Shown here: positions 9,069-64,000 of the stretch, in pieces
How the letters are laid out: each line of letters begins with the position of its first letter
Position numbering within the stretch: the stretch's first letter is position 1
Assembly (NCBI RefSeq): GCF_029227855.1
Contig: NZ_CP074356.1
Length of the DNA: 64,000 nucleotides
From: Escherichia coli
GTDB taxonomy: Bacteria > Pseudomonadota > Gammaproteobacteria > Enterobacterales > Enterobacteriaceae
Reading direction: 5' to 3' (one strand)
Made by a program: the position numbers and the translations under genes
Notes under the pieces: model-generated
Seen by the model: the letters and a program-made list of their open reading frames with translations, nothing else
Database searches by the model: none
Told to the model about the DNA's origin: nothing

Positions 9069-9362
9069 TTAAAAGAAGAAGAAAATCAGCCCGACAATGA
9101 GAACAATATCAGCAAGCAATGGGCAAAAAATCCCTTGCCAAAGAACCTTCTGCGGACGAAAGCCCACGCCGTGAATCACACCAGCACAGACGGCCCACAT
9201 CAGCAATAAACCATGCCAGATTTCCAGTTCACTGGTCTTCGCGGCGAAACGTGATGGGTCCCAAAACATACATCCGGCTAACAGAAGCGCCATCACGAAG
9301 GAAAGCGCCCGCAGGGGGCGCTTGTCCATTACCGCATACAAGGTTGCGATAATCTTACTCAT
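9069..9362 (-). CDS. ybgE: Small inner-membrane protein YbgE (cyd operon)
   Basis: 97 aa, hydrophobic; start codon overlaps the cydX stop by 1 nt. Confidence 0.85.
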   Translation of the reverse strand: MSKIIATLYAVMDKRPLRALSFVMALLLAGCMFWDPSRFAAKTSELEIWHGLLLMWAVCAGVIHGVGFRPQKVLWQGIFCPLLADIVLIVGLIFFFF

Positions 9363-9475
9363 CAGATGTCTTCTTGACCGGCTTTGCCTGATTCGACGTG
9401 CTCAAGCGCCAGCGCGGTGATTACCCCAAACGAACAGGCAAGAAGCGTTCCCAGAATCCATGCGAAATACCACAT
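9362..9475 (-). CDS. cydX: Cytochrome bd-I oxidase small subunit CydX
   Basis: 37 aa ORF MWYFAWILGTLLACSFGVITALALEHVESGKAGQEDI found by manual translation; too short for the ORF track; between cydB and ybgE. Confidence 0.85.
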   Translation of the reverse strand: MWYFAWILGTLLACSFGVITALALEHVESGKAGQEDI

Positions 9476-9489
9476 TTTTAGCTCCTTAC

Positions 9490-10629
9490 TTAGTACAGAG
9501 AGTGGGTGTTACGTTCAATATCTTCTTTGGTGATACGACCGAACATTTTCCAGTAACACCAGGCGGTGTAGAGCAGAATGATCGGTACCAGAACCACCGC
9601 AACCCAGGTCATGACGTTAAGCGTCAGCTGGCTGGAAGTTGCATCCCACATTGTCAGACTTGCGTTCATCATGGTGCTGGACGGCATCACAAACGGGAAC
9701 ATTGCGATACCGGCAGTCAGGATGATGCAGGCCAGCGTCAGGGAGGAGAACACAAACGCCCACGCGGCTTTATCCATACGTGCAGTCAGGATGGTCAGCA
9801 GCGGCAGAACCACACCCAGTGCCGGAATAGCCCACAGAATTGGCGTGTTGTTGAAGTTTACCAGCCATGCGCCAGCTTCACGAACCACTTCTTTATTCAG
9901 TGGGTTAGAGGCTGCGTAATGGTCCATTGTCGATTTCACGACATAACCATCGATACCGTACATCACCCATACGCCAGCCAGTGCGAAACAGACCAGTGTC
10001 ACCAGTGCCGCCACCTGAGCCGTTGCACGGGTACGCAGGTGCAGTTCGCCCACGGTACGCATTTGCAGATAGGTTGCGCCCTGAGTAATGATCATCCCTA
10101 CGCTCACCACGCCTGCCAGCAGGCCGAACGGGTTAAGCAGCTGGAAGAAGTTACCGGTGTAGTACAGACGCAGATATTCATCAACGTTGAACGGTACGCC
10201 CTGCAACAGGTTACCGAACGCTACACCAATCACCAGCGGCGGAACGAAGCTACCAATGAAGATGCCCCAGTCCCACATGTTACGCCAGCGGGTTTCTTCA
10301 ATCTTGGAGCGGTAGTCAAAACCGACCGGACGGAAGAACAAAGACGCCAGCACGAGGATCATCGCCACATAGAAGCCGGAGAACGCAGCGGCATAGACCA
10401 TCGGCCAGGCAGCAAAGAGTGCGCCGCCTGCGGTGATCAGCCAAACCTGGTTACCGTCCCAGTGTGGTGCAATGGAGTTAATCATAATTCGACGCTCGGT
10501 GTCGTTACGACCGAGGAAACGGGTGAGCATGCCCACCCCCATGTCGAAACCGTCAGTGACTGCAAAACCAATCAGCAGAACGCCAACCAGCAGCCACCAG
10601 ATAAAACGCAATACTTCATAATCGATCAT
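9490..10629 (-). CDS. cydB: Cytochrome bd-I ubiquinol oxidase subunit II
   Basis: 379 aa polytopic membrane protein; synteny with cydA. Confidence 0.95.
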   Translation of the reverse strand: MIDYEVLRFIWWLLVGVLLIGFAVTDGFDMGVGMLTRFLGRNDTERRIMINSIAPHWDGNQVWLITAGGALFAAWPMVYAAAFSGFYVAMILVLASLFFRPVGFDYRSKIEETRWRNMWDWGIFIGSFVPPLVIGVAFGNLLQGVPFNVDEYLRLYYTGNFFQLLNPFGLLAGVVSVGMIITQGATYLQMRTVGELHLRTRATAQVAALVTLVCFALAGVWVMYGIDGYVVKSTMDHYAASNPLNKEVVREAGAWLVNFNNTPILWAIPALGVVLPLLTILTARMDKAAWAFVFSSLTLACIILTAGIAMFPFVMPSSTMMNASLTMWDATSSQLTLNVMTWVAVVLVPIILLYTAWCYWKMFGRITKEDIERNTHSLY

Positions 10630-10644
10630 TTGACGACTCCTGTC

Positions 10645-12213
10645 TTAGCGTGCCGGCTGAGTAGTCGTGGAAGACTGCTCAAAGTGATAGCGACCGGTTT
10701 TCAGGCTGCTTGGGCCGAGGCGTGCAAACTTGAACATTAAGAACAATTCTGCCACCAGGAACAGGGTATACAGGCCGCAAATCAGCACCATTGAGAAGAT
10801 GAGATCGCCTGCGGTCAGTGACGAGTTCGCCACAGCTGTCGGCAGCACTTCACCGATAGCCCACGGTTGGCGGCCATATTCAGCCACAAACCAGCCCGCT
10901 TCTACAGCAATCCACGGCAGCGGAATACCGTACAGCGCGGCGCGCAGCAGCCATTTTTTCTCGCCAATGCGGTTGCGGATGACACTCCAGAAAGAGAGCG
11001 CGATGATTGCCAGCAGTAGGAAGCCACACGCCACCATGATACGGAACGCGAAGTACAGCGGCGCTACACGCGGAATGGAGTCTTTGGTTGCCTGTTGAAT
11101 CTGCGCTTCAGTCGCATCAGCCACGTTTGGCGTATAGCGTTTCAGCAGCAGACCGTAACCGAGGTCTTTCTTCATGCTATTGAACTGGTCACGAACCGCC
11201 TGGTCGGTAGAACCAGAACGCAGTTGCTCGAGCAGAGAGTACGCCTTCATCCCGTTACGAATGCGTTCTTCATGCTGCACCATCAGTTCTTTCAGGCCGA
11301 TAACTGGAGTATCCACGGAACGCGTTGCAATGATGCCCAGCGCGTAAGGGATCTGGATCGCAAATTTGTTCGTCTCCTCTTCCTGATCAGGAATGCCGAA
11401 CAGAGTAAAGGCAGCAGGCGCAGGTTGCGTTTCCCACTCGGCTTCAATAGCAGCCAGTTTGGTTTTCTGCACGTCGCCCATTTCGTAACCAGATTCATCA
11501 CCCAGAACAATAACAGACAGAACGGCAGCCATACCGAAGCTGGCAGCGATAGCAAAGGAGCGTTTAGCGAAGGCGAAGTCACGACCTTTCAGCATATACC
11601 ATGCGCTGATACCGAGGATGAACATCGCGCCAGTCACATAACCAGACGCTACAGTGTGAACGAATTTCACCTGAGCAACCGGGTTAAGCACCAGCTCGGA
11701 GAAGCTCACCATCTCCATACGCATAGTTTCAAAGTTGAAATCGGACGCGATTGGGTTTTGCATCCAGCCGTTCGCAACCAGAATCCACAGTGCGGACAGG
11801 TTTGAACCGAGCGCCACCAGCCAGGTGACACACATATGCTGAACTTTACCCAGACGATCCCAACCGAAGAAGAACAGACCTACAAAGGTGGATTCGAGGA
11901 AGAAGGCCATCAGACCTTCGATTGCCAGCGGCGCACCGAAGATATCCCCTACATAGTGGGAATAGTAAGACCAGTTAGTCCCGAACTGGAACTCCATGGT
12001 CAGACCGGTAGCCACACCCAGAGCGAAGTTGATACCAAACAACTTGCCCCAGAACTTGGTCATATCTTTATAAATCTGTTTGCCGGAAAGGACGTAGACC
12101 GTTTCCATAATGGCCAGCAGGAACGCCATACCGAGCGTCAGTGGCACAAAAAGGAAGTGGTACATCGCGGTCAAGGCAAACTGTAAGCGCGACAGTTCGA
12201 CTATATCTAACAT
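10645..12213 (-). CDS. cydA: Cytochrome bd-I ubiquinol oxidase subunit I
   Basis: Starts [28 protein letters not shown]; about 522 aa. Confidence 0.95.
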
Positions 12214-53302: not shown

Positions 53303-54224
53303 TGTGCAGCCGCCACGCTAATTGTTCGAAATAACGTTGTTGATCTTGCCGCGCTTTCAGTGCCTCTTCCAGTGAACACTGGACAAAATGAATCGGCTGA
53401 CCGAGCGGAATTTGCGCCAGATGGTACATATCAGCCTCAATGATACAGGCAATACGCGGATAACCACCGGTGGTCTGTGCGTCGTTCATCAATACAATCG
53501 GCTGGCCGTTATGCGGCACTTGCACCACACCCGGCAACAAACCGTGAGATAACAGTTCGCGATCGGTGGTGCGTTTTAAAATTTGCCCCTGTAAGCGATA
53601 GCCCATTCGGTTACTTTGCGAGCTAAGCTGCCAGGGCGAACGCCAGAATGCATCCTGCGAGGCGCGATCGAACTCATGATATTCCGGCCCCGGCAAGGCG
53701 CGAATGCGGTTGCCCCACAGCAGCTGTTTAACGCCCTGCGCTTCCATAAAATCACGCTTCGCTTTGCCAATCGGGAGTCGGTCACCATCCTTCAGTAAAC
53801 GGCCTTCCAGCCCGCCAATCCCCACTTTGAGATCGGTGCTGCATGACCCCATTACCGGCGGAACATCAATACCACCCGCGACCGCCAGATAACTGCGCAT
53901 CCCGTGCTGCGGGCGTTTAAGCGTTAAACGCTGGCCTGCTTTCATCGGCAATCGCCAGCCAGTCCAGACGGCGTTATCATCCAGCCGCGCTTCGCAACCG
54001 GCCCCCGTCAGAGCAAACCACCCATCAGTTTCGAACTCAACCGTTAACTGGCCGAGCGTGATCTCCAGCGCGGGGGCATTGGCGTCATTACCCACCAGTA
54101 GGTTAGCAATGCGTAACGCGGGCATATCCAGTGCGCCGCAGTGGCTGATACCCGACTGGCGAAAACCGTGACGACCGCCATCCTGCACAGTGGTATACAT
54201 GCCCGCACGAATAATCTTCAGCAT
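53292..54224 (-). CDS. pxpC: 5-oxoprolinase subunit C
   Basis: 310 aa; operon position between pxpB and pxpA. Confidence 0.9.
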
Positions 54225-54874
54225 ACTCCCTCCTTCTGCGGTACAAAGCGCACGCTGTCTCCCGGTCGTAATAAGATGGGTTCGTCACGCGCCGGATCAA
54301 ACAGGCTGAGTGAGGTATGACCAATCAACTGCCAGCCACCCGGCGTTGCCAGCGGATAAACACCAGTCTGCGGCCCGCCGATCCCGACAGAACCTGCCGG
54401 AACGAGCAAGCGCGGTTCAGCGCGCCGTGGCGTATGTAGTTGTTCCGGCAAACTCCCGAGATACGGGAAGCCCGGTTGAAAACCTAAAAACCAGACCACG
54501 TATTCCACGGAGGAGTGCAATTCAACAACCTGTTTTTCGCTCAATCCACAATGCGCCGCGACCACCGCCAAATCCGGTCCGGCTGCGCCACCGTAAACCA
54601 CCGGAATTTCAATAAAGCGAGACTCCGGCTCCAGCGCCTCACTCTCCTCCCACCAGCGTTGCAAACGCTCTATGGCATCCAGCGCCAGCGACTCAGGATT
54701 ACGCAAAATCACCGTGATATTGTTCATGCCGGGAATGGCTTCAACCACATTCGGCATATCCACCAGACGCTGTGCCAGTCGCCAGATCCGTTTCTGGCTA
54801 GCCAGCGTCACCGGCGGTTCCAGCTCCAGCACTACCGCCGTTTCACCTATCAGATAACAACGCGCTCGTTGCAC
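54218..54874 (-). CDS. pxpB: 5-oxoprolinase subunit B
   Basis: 218 aa; operon position. Confidence 0.9.
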
Positions 54875-54896
54875 TTTCGATCCCTCTGATTATTCG

Positions 54897-55640
54897 TTAT
54901 GCAGGATTAGGAATATCAATAAAGGTCACATCAAGATCGGTATTTTCATTCAGCCACTCGCTCAATGCGCGAATACCACCGCGTTCAGTGGCATGGTGAC
55001 CCGCAGCATAAAAATGCAATCCCTGCTCGCGGGCTGAATGAATGGTCTGTTCAGAAACTTCGCCAGTAATAAAAGCATCCACGCCAAAACGCGCGGCGCT
55101 ATCGATAAAACTCTGCCCGCCGCCCGTGCACCAGGCAACGCGCTGGACCACCTCAGGTCCGGTATCGCCACACCATAACGGCTTACGTCCCAGACGCGCT
55201 TCAATCCAGGAAGCCAGCTCCAGTCCCGGCACAGGCATGGTCAGTTCGCCCCACGGCACCAACGGCTCAATTTCGCCCATGACCGTGATCCCCAGTAACG
55301 CCGCCAGCTGTGCGTTATTGCCCAGCTCAGGATGTGCGTCAAGCGGCAAATGCCAGCCATACAGGTTGATATCATTTGCCAGCAACGTTTTTAAACGGTT
55401 ACGCTTCATTCCGCGAATGACCGGAGATTCGCCTTTCCAGAAGTAGCCATGATGCACAATGACCGCATCCGCGCCCAGACGCACTGCCTCATCGAGCAAA
55501 GCCTGGCTGGCAGTGACACCGGTAACAATTTTTTGCACCGTCTCTTTGCCTTCCACCTGCAAACCATTCGGCGCGTAATCACTAATCGCCGCGCTGTTCA
55601 GTTTTTCGTTAATCAGTTGTTCCAGTTCGGTGTTTTTCAT
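54897..55640 (-). CDS. ybgI: Nif3-family metal-binding protein (GTP cyclohydrolase 1 type 2 homolog)
   Basis: 247 aa, MKNTELEQLINEKLNSAAISDYAPNGLQVEG. Confidence 0.9.
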   Translation of the reverse strand: MKNTELEQLINEKLNSAAISDYAPNGLQVEGKETVQKIVTGVTASQALLDEAVRLGADAVIVHHGYFWKGESPVIRGMKRNRLKTLLANDINLYGWHLPLDAHPELGNNAQLAALLGITVMGEIEPLVPWGELTMPVPGLELASWIEARLGRKPLWCGDTGPEVVQRVAWCTGGGQSFIDSAARFGVDAFITGEVSEQTIHSAREQGLHFYAAGHHATERGGIRALSEWLNENTDLDVTFIDIPNPA

Positions 55641-55727
55641 CTTCGCGCCTTCCGTATTCTGATAGCTACACCGTTAACATAGCGTTACCTCGCCTGTTCG
55701 TCGATAGCCAATCTTTTGACATATTAA

Positions 55728-57392
<1,665 letters not shown>

Positions 57393-57434
57393 CAGGCCAG
57401 CACCGATGCCTGATAAAACGCTCGCTGCGTTTTA

Positions 57435-58853
57435 TCAGGCTCCTTTCCTCGCTTCTTCGTACGCTGCCAGCGTTCGCAGCCTTGCCTCTTTGTGATCAAC
57501 TATCGGTTGCGGATAATCCAGCGTCACACCTGCTTTCTGCGCCCACTTCCACGGCTCATGCACCACTTTCCCTGGCACATCGCGCAGTTCCGGTAGCCAC
57601 TGGCGGATAAACTCGCCTTCGCGGTCAAATTTCTCGCCCTGGGTTGTCGGGTTAAAAATACGAAAATACGGCGCTGCATCGGTTCCGGTTGAAGCGGCCC
57701 ACTGCCAGCCACCGTTATTAGCTGCCAAATCACCATCAATCAGCTGCGACATGAAATATCGCTCGCCTTCGCGCCAGTCGATCAACAAATCTTTCACCAG
57801 AAAACTGGCTGTAATCATCCGTAGCCTGTTATGCATCCAGCCAGTGCTGTTAAGCTGACGCATGGCAGCATCGACAATCGGGTATCCCGTTTTGCCTTCC
57901 TGCCAGGCCTGTAAATGTGCGGGATTGCTCTGCCACTGCACACGATCCGTCCAGGCAATAAACGGACAATGTTTACACAACGAGGGGTAATACGTCATCA
58001 GATGACGGTAGAACTCGCGCCAGATCAGCTCACTAAGCCAGACACTACCGGCCCCACCGTCCAGCGCCTGCGGCTGTTCCGCCAACAGGCGATGCAGACA
58101 CTGGCGAGGCGATAACCCGCCCGTTGCCAGGCTGGCGGACAAACGGCTGGTACCTTCAACAGCCGGAAAATCTCTTTGTTGCTCATACTCTCCGGCACCG
58201 TTCTGGCAAAACTGGCGTAATTGCGCAATCGCCGCTTTTTCTTCCACCGGGAAATGCGCAGTATCGAAAGGCTGACGAGGATAATTCAGCGTAATGGATG
58301 GCGCGGGTTCTATCATTCCGCTACTACGTACTTTTGGCGCAGCGACGCACTCCGGCATCCCTTCTCGCAGCCGTTTCAGCCAGGCATTTTGAAAAGGCGT
58401 AAAGACTTTGTACATCTCATGATTGCCAGTCATCACCGCGCCAGGCGGCAGGATCACGCTGTCATCAAATCCTTCACACACCACGTTACGCAGCGTTCTC
58501 TCAACCTGCACATCCCGCGCCCGCTCATTCACCTCATACTGATAGTTATAAAACAGATGGGTAACACGATTTTCCGCGCACACCTGTTCAACTATTTCGA
58601 CGCTGGCGGCAAAGTCATCCACTTCATGAAACAGCAAAGGAATGCCTTTTTCCGCCAGCGCGATTTGTAGCCCGTTCAGTTGTGCATTGATAAATTCAGC
58701 CTGACGCGGCGACATATTATGCGCCGCCCACTGGCGTGGTGTAGCGATATACAACGCCAGCACGCGTGCAGACGAATAGCGGCAAGCGGCAGCCAGTGCG
58801 AAATTATCGTGCAGACGTAAATCCTGGCGAAACCAGACCAGATGGGTAGTCAT
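57435..58853 (-). CDS. phrB: Deoxyribodipyrimidine photolyase
   Basis: 472 aa, MTTHLVWFRQDLRLHDNFALAAA. Confidence 0.95.
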   Translation of the reverse strand: MTTHLVWFRQDLRLHDNFALAAACRYSSARVLALYIATPRQWAAHNMSPRQAEFINAQLNGLQIALAEKGIPLLFHEVDDFAASVEIVEQVCAENRVTHLFYNYQYEVNERARDVQVERTLRNVVCEGFDDSVILPPGAVMTGNHEMYKVFTPFQNAWLKRLREGMPECVAAPKVRSSGMIEPAPSITLNYPRQPFDTAHFPVEEKAAIAQLRQFCQNGAGEYEQQRDFPAVEGTSRLSASLATGGLSPRQCLHRLLAEQPQALDGGAGSVWLSELIWREFYRHLMTYYPSLCKHCPFIAWTDRVQWQSNPAHLQAWQEGKTGYPIVDAAMRQLNSTGWMHNRLRMITASFLVKDLLIDWREGERYFMSQLIDGDLAANNGGWQWAASTGTDAAPYFRIFNPTTQGEKFDREGEFIRQWLPELRDVPGKVVHEPWKWAQKAGVTLDYPQPIVDHKEARLRTLAAYEEARKGA

Positions 58854-59359
58854 AAAACTCCTGCATGGCGCAAGTTAATCACACGCGGCCAAAGTTCGAA
58901 ATAACGCTGCTCTGAAAGCCAGGCGTCAGGATAAAACGCCATATAGTGTTTGATACGCATCAGCGGCGCAAGAAGCGGTTGCTCGCCACGGCGATAACTG
59001 TCGATAAGCGCCGCCAGCTGCTGGCGTTCTGTGGAATCAATATGTGGGCGAAAATATCCCTGAACGTGCATCAAAACGTTAGTATGATCACGCCGGTTGG
59101 CAGGGTGAGAAAGCAAAACAATTACGCGTTGGCGGTACTGGTTGTAATAGTCATCCAGATTTTGCCACTGGTGAATATCAGCCACAAACGGGCCAAGTTT
59201 GCGGTACTCGGGCTGGGAATGGGCCAGAAAGACGAGTTTATAGCGGCTGTGATAATCGTTGAGTGCCCCGCGCGTTAAGCCATGTTCTTTCAGTCGATGT
59301 AACTCATGAAGGGCGAAGATACGGATTAGGGTGCTGTCATCAAATCGTTGCTGATTCAT
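58850..59359 (-). CDS. ybgA: DUF1722-family protein co-transcribed with photolyase
   Basis: 169 aa; 4 nt overlap with the phrB start. Confidence 0.85.
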   Translation of the reverse strand: MNQQRFDDSTLIRIFALHELHRLKEHGLTRGALNDYHSRYKLVFLAHSQPEYRKLGPFVADIHQWQNLDDYYNQYRQRVIVLLSHPANRRDHTNVLMHVQGYFRPHIDSTERQQLAALIDSYRRGEQPLLAPLMRIKHYMAFYPDAWLSEQRYFELWPRVINLRHAGVL

Positions 59360-59476
59360 TACTGCTCCTGAACGGTTTACAGGAGTAAGTGTAGACGTTG
59401 GGAAATGATATTTGTGAAGTTAATCCTGTTGTAGCAGGGCAAGATTACGAAAGCCCGCTCCCCGCAAGGACTGACG

Positions 59477-60268
59477 TCAGGTAGTTTCTGTCCATGGCTG
59501 CCCTTTCCATTCAAACGTGAAATCAATAAGTTCATCAGGGACATCGCAAACAATGTGAAGACGGATTTCTTCTCTGCCGTGACTCTTTTCACTCATTGCG
59601 TAACTGCCATGCTCTGGATTATTTAATTCTTTCAGCGGAAACTTTTCCTCAAAGGCTTTATTTAGCCGCCCCTGGTTTCCTTTTACAGCGAATAAATAAT
59701 CACCGCCCTGTTTTTGTATCTTCTCTGCGATATCTTTCTGGCAACCCATCGCATCAGTTGTGATAATTTTTCCTTTAATATCCAACATGTTAAGAAGTTC
59801 AGGGATAGCTGTAATTTCATTGGATTTCTCATCCGTCCTGATCTGTCCGATGACCAGACTGTGCATTGTTGAGAACGAACTAATGACATGAATCGCTCCC
59901 CTGCGGCGACTCTAGTCATAAGAGTGCCGGAGCGTTTTTCCATCAATTGCAATGACGCCTTTATCATCTGAAGAATGGCAGTCACGCATCCAGTTAATAA
60001 AGCACTCGTGAAATTTTGCAGGACTGATACAGGATACAACTCTGGCAATGGTATCGTGAACAGGAATACCATTTTCAAAATCACCATATTGCTTCAAAAA
60101 ATCGAGATGTGTTTCCCCAAAATCCTCTATATCTTCCCAGCCTTCTGCACCAGAAATAACGGCACAAATAGTCAACAGTAGAATATCCGACAATTTATGT
60201 TCCACTTTCCAGGCTTGTCTGTAATCGGGGATAATAGAAATATGTTCCATCAATTTTTTAAGTTCCAT
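59477..60268 (-). pseudogene. H-repeat-associated (ISAs1-family) transposase interrupted by an in-frame amber codon and C-terminally truncated
   Basis: N-terminal segment [32 protein letters not shown]...[10 protein letters not shown], then TAG (complement of 59912-59914), then the same frame continues [40 protein letters not shown]...FEWKG and ends early. Both track ORFs 59912-60268 and 59477-59866 are in one frame. Confidence 0.8.
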
Positions 60269-60375
60269 TTTGTTCTCCTTAATTATGTAAGGAGTATTTG
60301 ATCATGTATAAGCAATAAAAAACAGCTTCAGGTAATGAGGAATATCTCAATTTTTAAACATAAAATGCGAATTAT

Positions 60376-60993
60376 TTAGTACAAAAAGTGTACTTCTGAT
60401 GATCTTTCCCTGTCCTTGGCACCATCATTTTTTGACGCTTCAAAAATACTACTACAAGTGAGTTTAGAAAACTCTTTTCCAGATAATTCTCCAGGTTGTA
60501 ATCCTCCGCCGCCAAAAATCCTACTCCCAGGATTTCCATACCTATTTAGAGCATATGAATAGCAATTATTTACGGCAAGATAATACGCATCTGAATTTAG
60601 TTCTCGATTGAATACTGGAGCAGGTTTATCAATTAAGCCCAGCGGATCAATAGAATAGGTTGGATGTATGGAAGCATATACATACTGATTCCACCCGCCT
60701 TCCAGCCCAATCGGATCCTGAGTGATATACCGCCCCTGCAGCGGGTCATAATAGCGGTGGCGGTTGTAATACAGGCCGGACTCCTCATCATACTGCTGCC
60801 CCGGCAGACGGATAAGCTGCTGCAGGTGCTGCGGGTTCTCTTCAGTCAGCAGGTTGTCCCATTCATCATATTCTGCGCACCATTCTGTTGCCCCGTCAGG
60901 GCTGATAAGCGTCAGCGGCAGGCCGCGATAGTCGCAGTGGTAGAGGTGGATTATTCGCAGTGATCTATATGCCAACGTCATCTTATTTTTCAT
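60376..60993 (-). CDS. Orphan Rhs C-terminal fragment (core-end homology plus distinct toxin tip)
   Basis: First about 100 aa ([82 protein letters not shown]) parallel the end of the main Rhs core at 62.0-62.3 kb; the remaining about 100 aa are unrelated to the main Rhs tip. Confidence 0.75.
60700..60970 (-). repeat. Rhs core 3'-end homology block (copy 1; partner at about 62020-62290)
   Basis: Nucleotide-level near-identity, e.g. gtgatataccgcccctgcagcgggtcataatagcggtggcggttgtaatacaggccggactcctcatcatactgctg at both loci. Confidence 0.8.
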
Positions 60994-61045
60994 CTACTCC
61001 AACGAGTAGACAAGTTTTTTATTAAACCATTTATACCTTTTACGA

Positions 61046-61549
61046 TTAAATTTTCTTATGTAATAGAGGTGAATAATCTTCCCAAAAATCCATACAAGCT
61101 TTACTTGCATAAAAGAATCCAGCGTCTGATTCATAAGACATAAACTGTGCAATAATAGATAGTTGTATATCTGAAAAATTAAAAACAAAATTCAAAAAAT
61201 CATCGTGATCCCGATACTCAGGACATAAATATTGTTGAATAAAATCGGATTCAAAAACCCAAAAATCATTCTTATTAAACAACGAGGCATAAATATACAG
61301 AGGGATGTAATAGCAGAATACTTTCTCAGGGAGGAATGTAATTCCTAACTCTAAAGCATAAGAGTCATCCTTTATTTTAAAATTGTTGGCTATTTCATTC
61401 CATTGTTTCTTTTGGAAAAAATTATATACAATATCCAGTTCCTCCAGCCCTGTAATATCATTTGAAATATGAGGTAATGGCTGGCATGGGAAATGAATCA
61501 TAAGTTCATCATAGACTGCACTCTCGTTAGAGAAAATTATTTTTTTCAT
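61046..61549 (-). CDS. Probable Rhs immunity protein (RhsI) for the main Rhs toxin tip
   Basis: 167 aa AT-rich ORF starting [12 protein letters not shown]; its ATG overlaps the Rhs stop codon (ATGA); location typical of rhsI genes. Confidence 0.65.
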
Positions 61550-64000
61550 TTTATTAAGCCACTGCAATCAGCTGCTGTTTTATATGCTTTATTCTCTTCT
61601 TCCATATGGGCCTTATCTCCACCACCAAAGCACTGATTATTAATCTGCTTTCTGACCGAAGCGCACGCCAAATTTATCTCGTACCGTCTCAATATTTCTT
61701 TTCTCAGCATCTGAGGAGCGCAAGCTCTAGACTGGTTACATAATCTGTTTTTTTCATTTTGTAAGTCACTCAGGTTCTGGGGACTACAGTTACCACCAGG
61801 ATTTACACCTGACTTATGTTCATCTGTTAATTTGTCGGCTTCTGGATTAACTTTACGGCCATATTGATCTCTGCGTTGTTGCCCACTTTGGATAACACCA
61901 CCTGATGAAAACAAACCGCAACTCATCAGTGCTACAACACTAAGAATTAACGGATTTAACCCTTGTGGGTCTATCTCTGAGATCGGATTTAACGGATACT
62001 GATAAAAATTCCATCCCCCCTTCAGTCCAATCGGATCCTGAGTGATATACCGCCCCTTCAGCGGGTCATAATAGCGGTGGCGGTTGTAATACAGGCCGGA
62101 CTCCTCATCATACTGCTGACCCGGCAGGCGGATGAGCTGCTGCAGCTGATGCGGGTTCTCTTCATTCAGCTGGTTACCCCATTCATCGTATTCTGCGTAC
62201 CACGCTGTTGTCCCTTCCGTGCTGACAAGCGCCAGCGGCAGGCCGCGATGGTCGCAGTGGTACAGGTGGATTTTTCGCGCCGGCGTGTACACCGGGTCCA
62301 TCTGGTTTTGCATCTGCTCCACCGTCAGGCCGCACGATGCCAGCCAGCGGCGGCTTTCCTCGCTCACCCGGTCAGTAAGGATTTCACTTTCCAGCCGGTC
62401 GAGCATCTGCACCAGCACCGGCGGGAACACCACTCTGCCACCGTCTTCGCCGCCGGACTGCTGAAGGGCATCCGCCAGGCTGCGGCGCTGCGTTTTCGCC
62501 AGCTCACCGGTGGCGGTTTCAACTCTGATGAGTGGCGTGAAGCTCCCCGGCTGATAAACCGTCTGGATGCGGGTTCTGTCGTTCTGTATTGTGGTCAGCC
62601 GGTCGCCGTCCCAGCCGTACCAGGTCACTTCCGGTTTCCGTGACAGCGACATCCAGCCCGTCAGGTCCCGTTCACGCCGCCATACCCGTTTTGCCACCCT
62701 GCGGCCCAGCGGGTCGTAAAGATAGCGACTTTCGACCAGCGGCTCTGCATATTGTGTCCGCGTGTAGTGCACCAGCCGGTGCCGGCTGTCGTAATGATAC
62801 CGGTGAGTCCGCTCATCATCCGTGCGGATAACCCCTTCCGGGATGAGGTCGGTTTTCTCTGTCAGCCTGCCGTGACGGTCATACCGGTAAAGATAGTGCG
62901 CGTCACGGGCGATACGGTTATCCGGCCACATGCTGAGGGTGCTGTCCGGGTGCAGCTCCGGGTCGGGCAGGCGGTTGCCTGCCGGGTCCGTGGCATACGG
63001 GATGCGGATATCCAGGTTCGCTGCCGTGGTGTGGACGCCGGTCAGCCTGCCGGTGTCGCTGTAGCTGTAACTCCGGGTCTGGCGCGGGCTGCTGATGCGG
63101 ATGAGTTCGCCGTTGTCGTTCCAGGTGTAATCGCGGTCATACTGCAGGCTGTTCAGGTGCTGGCTCTGTAACTGCCCGGCAGGGGTGTAAGCGGTGGTGA
63201 GTTCATAACGGCCGAAGCTGCGCAGCGTTTCCCGGTGCAGGCGGTCGCGGGTGAAATCCACCAGCGGTGTGTCGCCGAGTTTCATGCCTGACAGCCAGCC
63301 GCTGCCGTAGGTCAGCCATTCCACGGCGGGCAGGCTGTCCGGTATACAGCGGTTCGCCAGTCCCTGCGCGTTGTAAGCATGTCTGGTTTCATGCTGCCAG
63401 AGCAGTGCTTCCGTCTGCGGGTGATGCACCGTCTGGCGCTCACCGGTCAGGCGGCCTTTCTCATCATACCCGTAATGCACCGTCACCCGGTGGCCTTCGC
63501 TGAGATAGCTGATTTGTGTCAGCCAGCCGCGTTCGTCGTACCGCCACTGTTCTGCGGTTTCACCATTCACCGTTCGCTGTGTGATGCGGTCTGCTTCGTC
63601 ATAGTGCCAGTGGGTGACCAGCCCCTCATCCTCGCTGCGGATAAGTTTGCCGGTCAGGTCGTGGTGATAACGCTGTGTGCGGCCGTCAAAGCCGGTTTCC
63701 TGTATCAGCCGGTCGAGTACATCGTAACGGAAGGTGGTGTGGCTGCCGTTTTCACTGGTCAGGCGGATGACCCGTCCGGCAGCATCGTATTCCATACTGC
63801 GCGTCAGACCACCCTGCGTGGTACGGATGGCCTTTCCCCACGTATCGTACTGTGTCCCGTTTCTGCTGCCGTCCGGGGCAATGACGGCGGTCAGGTCACC
63901 GGCGGCGTTGTATTCATACCGCGTTTCATGGCCCTGCATGTCTTTCACCGCAATTAACTGTCCACGGCTGTCGTATGCGCGGTACTGACTCAGGCCTTCC
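61546..64000 (-). CDS. rhsC: Rhs protein, C-terminal part (YD-repeat core plus polymorphic toxin tip); 5' end beyond the window
   Basis: YD-repeat-rich translation (…RYDAAGRV…[10 protein letters not shown]…), core-terminating DPxGL motif, then a distinct C-terminal domain of about 140 aa; symbol by synteny with ybgA-phrB only. Confidence 0.8.

Follow-up and report, generated by a model that had tools for sequence, protein, structure and literature searches.

Is an H-repeat transposase gene that carries one in-frame amber codon a functional gene switched off by a single base, or the remnant of an element that had lost its activity long before? The question is raised by a stretch of 64,000 nucleotides from Escherichia coli (contig NZ_CP074356.1, assembly GCF_029227855.1), hereafter referred to as the window, in which such a gene lies beside Rhs genes. 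H-repeats (H-rpt) were reportedly described together with the Rhs elements by Zhao and colleagues in 1993. In a preliminary description made from the letters of the window, the gene was considered to be inactivated by one nonsense change together with a C-terminal truncation, to have decayed recently and to be functional only in an amber-suppressor background. The analysis presented here leads to a different answer. The gene, ybfD, is almost certainly a fixed non-functional relic of an ISEc1-like element (ISAs1 family) that was inactivated in two steps, i.e. an old deletion and a recent amber mutation.

A transposase gene interrupted by one amber codon

The coding frame is carried by the minus strand, on which the following parts can be distinguished.

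59477-60268, minus strand: ybfD gene remnant, amber-interrupted, homologous to ISAs1/H-repeat transposases
59915-60268, minus strand: codons 1-118, the sole translatable product, a 118-aa N-terminal fragment (from the ORF listing)
59912-59914, minus strand (plus-strand CTA): amber codon K119*, AAG to TAG (from sequence and alignment)
59503-59911, minus strand: codons 120-255 and the first base of codon 256, untranslated transposase homology (from alignment and profiles)

Translation of the minus strand from 60268 to 59477 yields 263 codons with one internal stop at codon 119. The frame starts with an ATG at 60268, preceded 7 nt upstream by the Shine-Dalgarno sequence AAGGAG, and is closed by a TGA at 59477-59479. 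The single in-frame TAG first noticed at 59912-59914 is indeed the sole internal stop of the 263 codons. The amino acid it replaces was given as a lysine in the preliminary description, which agrees with every other copy aligned: codon 119 is AAG (Lys) in K-12 ybfD, ybfL and yhhI as well as at eleven further ybfD loci, and TAG in the window alone. The change can be read directly from the DNA alignment with intact or less damaged copies as a single A-to-T transversion (AAG to TAG). The preliminary description held that the segments on either side of the TAG form one gene. They were found to be contiguous in the intact homologues, and no indel was detected near the codon-119 stop in the DNA alignment with K-12 yhhI, ybfL and ybfD. 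K119* is the only lesion in codons 1-256 of the window allele.

For the family assignment, the conceptual 263-codon product was scored with an X at codon 119. With the NCBIfam ISAs1 equivalog NF033564 the match extends over residues 29-255 (E=2.1e-86; 290 bits, the cut-off being 70), Pfam DDE_Tnp_1_assoc (PF13808) matches residues 8-94 (E=4.5e-34) and Pfam DDE_Tnp_1 (PF01609) matches residues 102-232 (E=8e-17). Because the DDE_Tnp_1 and NF033564 matches cross the stop codon, the two halves of the ORF belong to one interrupted gene. A transposase combining the DDE_Tnp_1_assoc and DDE_Tnp_1 domains is characteristic of the ISAs1 family, and these profile matches, together with the Rhs-flanked position of the locus, bear out the initial recognition of an ISAs1/H-repeat transposase gene beside Rhs. 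The 118-aa fragment contains a complete DDE_Tnp_1_assoc domain (PF13808, residues 8-94, E=7.9e-35 in the fragment), and the first part of the DDE domain, encoded at 59503-59911 on the minus strand, is left untranslated. A passage of the E. coli W genome paper lists H-rpt as insertion sequences, yet states that in E. coli they were never seen to transpose (PMC3032704, citing Zhao et al. 1993).

An internal deletion beneath the amber codon

The window element was compared with ISEc1 (H-rptB), the yhhI copy of K-12. The ends CAGGGAAAGAT...ATCTTGCCCTG, the 5' UTR and the start codon are common to both, and nucleotide identity amounts to 97-98% in the shared parts. The yhhI element has 1,291 bp, a full 378-codon ORF and full DDE_Tnp_1 coverage, whereas the window element has 978 bp, lacks 313 bp and carries K119*. 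Two further features of the minus strand mark the site of the loss.

59500-59502, minus strand: junction of the 313-bp deletion, with GC microhomology (from alignment with the yhhI element)
59477-59499, minus strand: frame-shifted tail, ..QPWTETT and TGA, derived from the last part of the transposase gene (from translation and alignment)

When aligned to full-length K-12 yhhI, the window sequence continues after ...FTFEWKG with the final 67 bp of the element, AGCCATGGACAGAAAC...CGTAATCTTGCCCTG. The absent 313 bp correspond to nt 912-1224 of the yhhI element, that is to CDS nt 768-1080 or approximately codons 257-360 of 378. A 2-bp GC microhomology is present at the boundaries of the deletion, which probably arose by means of it. 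Since 313 cannot be divided by three, the 3' piece that remains is out of frame (QPWTETT, then a stop). The CDS annotated for ybfD by PGAP ends at the deletion junction. The C-terminal part of the protein is missing, as had been noticed at first, but the cause is an internal deletion that kept both ends of the element and not a truncation of its end.

The deleted segment includes the conserved block RNHWHVENKLHWRLD, with HVEN at residues 304-307 (HWHVEN...LHW). This HVEN-containing block is presumably the site of the third catalytic acidic residue in DDE transposases of the IS4/IS5/ISAs1 type, and by analogy E306 would be this residue. A sequence search of solved structures with full-length YhhI returned only chance matches to CheY (E ~1). 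The extent of the loss is directly visible in the domain coverage: of the 200 positions of the DDE_Tnp_1 profile, the window protein covers 3-139, positions 140-200 being missing, whereas intact YhhI covers 3-200. An intact element would comprise 1,291 bp and an uninterrupted ORF of about 378 codons. The window element, on account of its length of 978 bp, the 313-bp deletion, the frameshift and K119*, is therefore a defective derivative and not an intact member of the ISAs1 family. Its gene is predicted from these lesions to be inactive as a transposase.

These observations bear on the proposal that a single amber codon knocked out an otherwise functional transposase, in which case the decay would be recent and rescue by an amber suppressor possible. 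Although the change from AAG to TAG is the sole lesion in codons 1-256 and homology continues unbroken across the stop, this proposal is extremely unlikely in view of the frame-shifting 313-bp deletion, the lost HVEN block and a DDE profile that reaches only position 139 of 200. The loss of about 105 codons including the HVEN block, combined with the frameshift, means that amber suppression would restore only a catalytically incomplete 263-residue protein. Inactivation by one nonsense change has to be abandoned since the frame-shifting deletion was already present in the gene, and function in an amber-suppressor background falls with about codons 257-360 deleted, the frame shifted and the DDE domain incomplete.

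The ends of the element

The limits of the element and its terminal repeats were placed as follows.

59435-60412, minus strand: whole H-rpt / ISEc1-like (ISAs1 family) element, 978 bp, internally deleted (from the homology limits with the yhhI copy)
60402-60412, minus strand: left terminal inverted repeat CAGGGAAAGAT, at the copy boundary, with 10/11 bases matching the right end
59435-59445, minus strand: right terminal inverted repeat, CAGGGCAAGAT on the plus strand and ATCTTGCCCTG on the minus strand, with the same sequence as the K-12 yhhI right end

The similarity to the unlinked K-12 yhhI copy, which has 1,291 bp, sets in precisely at CAGGGAAAGAT and ceases precisely at ATCTTGCCCTG, the flanks being unrelated. 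Both ends of the element begin with CAGGG, and the matching between them (10/11) becomes weaker past 11 bp. Terminal inverted repeats of the ISAs1 family are 14-22 bp long and start with CAGGG (PMC11946415), and this start is found in the window element. When inverted repeats were searched for blindly, the top 25 pairs were all chance-like and did not include the true 11-bp ends. As this search did not rank the terminal repeats, the boundaries of the element were taken from the points at which copies at different loci cease to be homologous. By this route both of the repeats that the preliminary description had proposed to look for were located, at 59435-59445 and 60402-60412. The flanking sequences GTGCCAAGGA and CTACAACAGG are unrelated, and no target-site duplication, expected to reach up to ~10 bp, is visible; the K-12 yhhI copy likewise has none. 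Recombination among tandem copies could have removed a target-site duplication.

With both inverted repeats intact, the 978-bp element might be mobilised in trans by intact ISEc1 copies. Such mobilisation is very unlikely to account for the element, which is found in its deleted form beside ybgA in at least 3,090 genomes with a 181-nt flank-plus-junction probe. According to the same passage of the E. coli W genome paper, moreover, H-rpt transposition was not observed in E. coli (PMC3032704).

Identity of the locus

A sequence identical to that of the gene in the window is present in NZ_CP023820.1 (CRT46_RS03475), where it was annotated by PGAP as ybfD, 'ISAs1 family transposase; internal stop; incomplete; missing C-terminus'. 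In this chromosome ybfD is flanked on one side by ybgA-phrB-dtpD and on the other by an RHS fragment lacking its N-terminus, together with a hypothetical gene and a complete RHS core protein. The gene order in the window is that of K-12, rhsC...ybfQ-ybfL-ybfD-ybgA-phr-dtpD, in the opposite orientation. As expected from a ybfD orthologue, the window gene is located directly upstream of ybgA-phr and downstream of RhsC tips, and it possesses the common deletion junction. The feature corresponds, as judged from sequence and gene order, to the E. coli ybfD locus, i.e. the RhsC-linked H-rpt located between an orphan Rhs tip and ybgA. It is as such an ordinary pseudogene, already known and automatically annotated today. 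The PGAP call (CRT46_RS03475) has the same coordinates and mentions neither the internal deletion nor the surviving right end. What is corrected here is that the deletion is internal with the ends preserved, that no amber-suppressor rescue is to be expected and that the amber overlies an ancient inactivation.

The ybfD gene of K-12 (b0706, 'H repeat-associated putative transposase YbfD') has the same position, the same 313-bp deletion junction and the same right end as the window copy, with ~95% nucleotide identity. The two alleles carry different stops: K-12 ybfD has AAG at codon 119 and an amber of its own, W254* (TGG to TAG), while the window has TAG at codon 119. Three tandem H-rpt copies are present in K-12 (the ybfQ fragment, ybfL and ybfD, at 9303-11981 of the compared K-12 region), in contrast with the single copy of the window. 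K-12 ybfD abuts ybfL and is devoid of its first 24 bp, which hold the left inverted repeat, whereas the window copy retains this repeat. The upstream Rhs tip of the window also differs from that of K-12, and ybfO and ybfC are absent from the window.

Age and distribution of the two lesions

All 13 ybfD loci examined, K-12 included, have the same deletion junction. Among 5,426 complete E. coli genomes, at least 3,090 cover 80% or more of a 181-nt probe that extends from the ybgA flank across the right repeat and the deletion junction; intact copies located elsewhere match this probe in two pieces over 444 bp (131+313). A 70-nt probe centred on the junction was uninformative as to multiple sites, since in megablast the signal is confounded by nearby SNPs and by intact copies that match half of the probe. 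That so many genomes (at least 3,090 of the 5,426) have the junction next to ybgA indicates that the inactivation is old.

The amber has a much narrower distribution, which was likewise counted directly. The exact 61-mer centred on the TAG was found in 96 of the 5,426 complete genomes, and nearly all remaining genomes that match this 61-mer have a one-mismatch version. Two non-synonymous changes near the amber, D103G and A131S (window 59878, 59958), are private with respect to all other copies examined. A pre-amber probe was designed as a 96-mer in which AAG is restored and the private SNPs of the window lineage, D103G and A131S, are kept. It was found exactly in three genomes, at ybfD. One of these AAG genomes, GMF054, has only 2 differences from the window in 834 nt, and 'internal stop' does not appear in its PGAP note. 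The amber is real, derived, recent and confined to one clone. No report of the sequence type of the TAG-carrying strains was found in a literature search. The K119* SNP could be used as a lineage or clone marker.

A change of a single base and nothing else could also result from a sequencing or assembly error. The probability of such an artefact is practically negligible, given that the exact TAG 61-mer recurs in 96 independent complete genomes and that a 1,021-bp region containing the feature is 100% identical in many complete E. coli chromosomes (at least 30 records among the matches listed).

The distribution among genomes also indicates the order of events, the deletion most probably preceding the amber. 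In a first and old step, a 313-bp internal deletion would have removed approximately codons 257-360 and shifted the frame so that the ORF ends 7 codons later, leaving both terminal inverted repeats in place. In a second step, recent and specific to the clone, the change from AAG to TAG at codon 119 would halt translation after 118 residues. The recent decay initially proposed thus holds for the amber, restricted to 96 genomes, but not for the deletion, which is old and shared by at least 3,090 of the 5,426. A deletion that common and older than the amber further argues against the amber as the event that silenced a functional transposase.

Other lineages have their own lesions in ybfD: Q18* (TAA), E65* (TAA), W254* (TAG, the K-12 allele) and two frameshifting 1-bp insertions. 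K119* of the window is one more in this series of lineage-specific lesions. Since stops at codons 18 and 65 occur in several lineages, no protein product is conserved at the ybfD locus.

A wider comparison of the window with strain 7/2, over positions 53360-64000, revealed 41 mismatches. Thirteen of the first 20 mismatches listed sit in 53607-54361 (under pxpB/ybgI), the region flagged being 53607-56139, and 59360-60380 is identical in strain 7/2. The cluster of mismatches may represent a small recombination patch or may just reflect another member of the clone.

Mosaic alleles and the question of a function

Pairwise dN/dS among ybfD alleles, compared over window 59435-60268, ranges from 0.10 to 0.23, with dS of 0.13-0.22. 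Taken at face value, these dN/dS values suggest constraint, unlike simple neutral decay in place, for which a value of ~1 would be expected. The dS of 0.13-0.22 looks high for alleles of a single locus within one species. The differences between ybfD alleles are arranged in blocks that agree with other H-rpt copies. The 5' ends of ybfD in O111, STEC005 and PSJ-22 are those of K-12 ybfL, Q18* included, and the ybfD of O111 is single-copy. Recombination or gene conversion among paralogous and tandem H-rpt copies would be the most economical explanation of the dN/dS values, and a better one than selection, as far as can be judged from the sequences. Gene conversion would import variation accumulated under selection in functional transposase genes. 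The block structure points to such recombination, or to the collapse of a tandem H-rpt array, rather than to decay in place. The mosaic ybfD alleles in this respect exemplify recombination among tandem H-rpt copies.

Low dN/dS was also considered as a sign of ybfD function and was rejected because of the mosaic structure and of the early stops in other lineages.

A more elaborate possibility is the domestication of a fragment. The 118-residue product, a fragment of DNA-binding type (or the truncated protein of 253-263 aa in other strains), would bind ISEc1 ends and regulate or inhibit intact copies, and the low dN/dS would then reflect a real constraint. The complete DDE_Tnp_1_assoc domain, the good Shine-Dalgarno sequence, the two intact inverted repeats, the dN/dS of 0.10-0.23 and a promoter-like site at 60310-60282 are all compatible with this scenario. 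ybfD transcripts were moreover found to increase in long-term stationary phase in K-12 (PMC4032248), in an assay whose primers or probes would cross-hybridise with paralogues. Domestication is nonetheless very improbable, because the stops at codons 18 and 65 and the frameshifts present in other lineages destroy even the N-terminal domain, and the promoter-like site does not exceed what shuffled sequence yields. The promoter and terminator scan of the locus as a whole likewise gave no more sites than shuffled sequence does. The relic inactivated by deletion and then by the amber is the preferred reading of the locus.

The neighbouring Rhs genes

The Rhs side of the element is occupied by a fragment that extends into it.

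60376-60993, minus strand: orphan Rhs C-terminal tip ORF (from the ORF listing; PF03527 RHS, E=1.7e-10)

This ORF was annotated by PGAP as 'RHS repeat-associated core domain-containing protein, missing N-terminus'. Its last 34 nt and its stop codon fall inside the left end of the H-rpt (60376-60412). No recognised toxin domain was found in the orphan tip, which matches the end of the RHS core (PF03527) only, and the tip is not followed by an immunity gene. It seems that the original 3' end of this orphan toxin tip was removed or substituted by the insertion sequence.

The main Rhs gene is encoded on the minus strand from 61546 to beyond 64000 and runs past the end of the window. It is overlapped by a 173-aa ORF (61046-61567), located where an immunity gene would be expected, which has a sub-threshold match to DUF6714 (23.8 bits against a cut-off of 27). 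The C-terminal tip of the main Rhs gene itself carries an Ntox16 toxin domain (E=2.4e-12).
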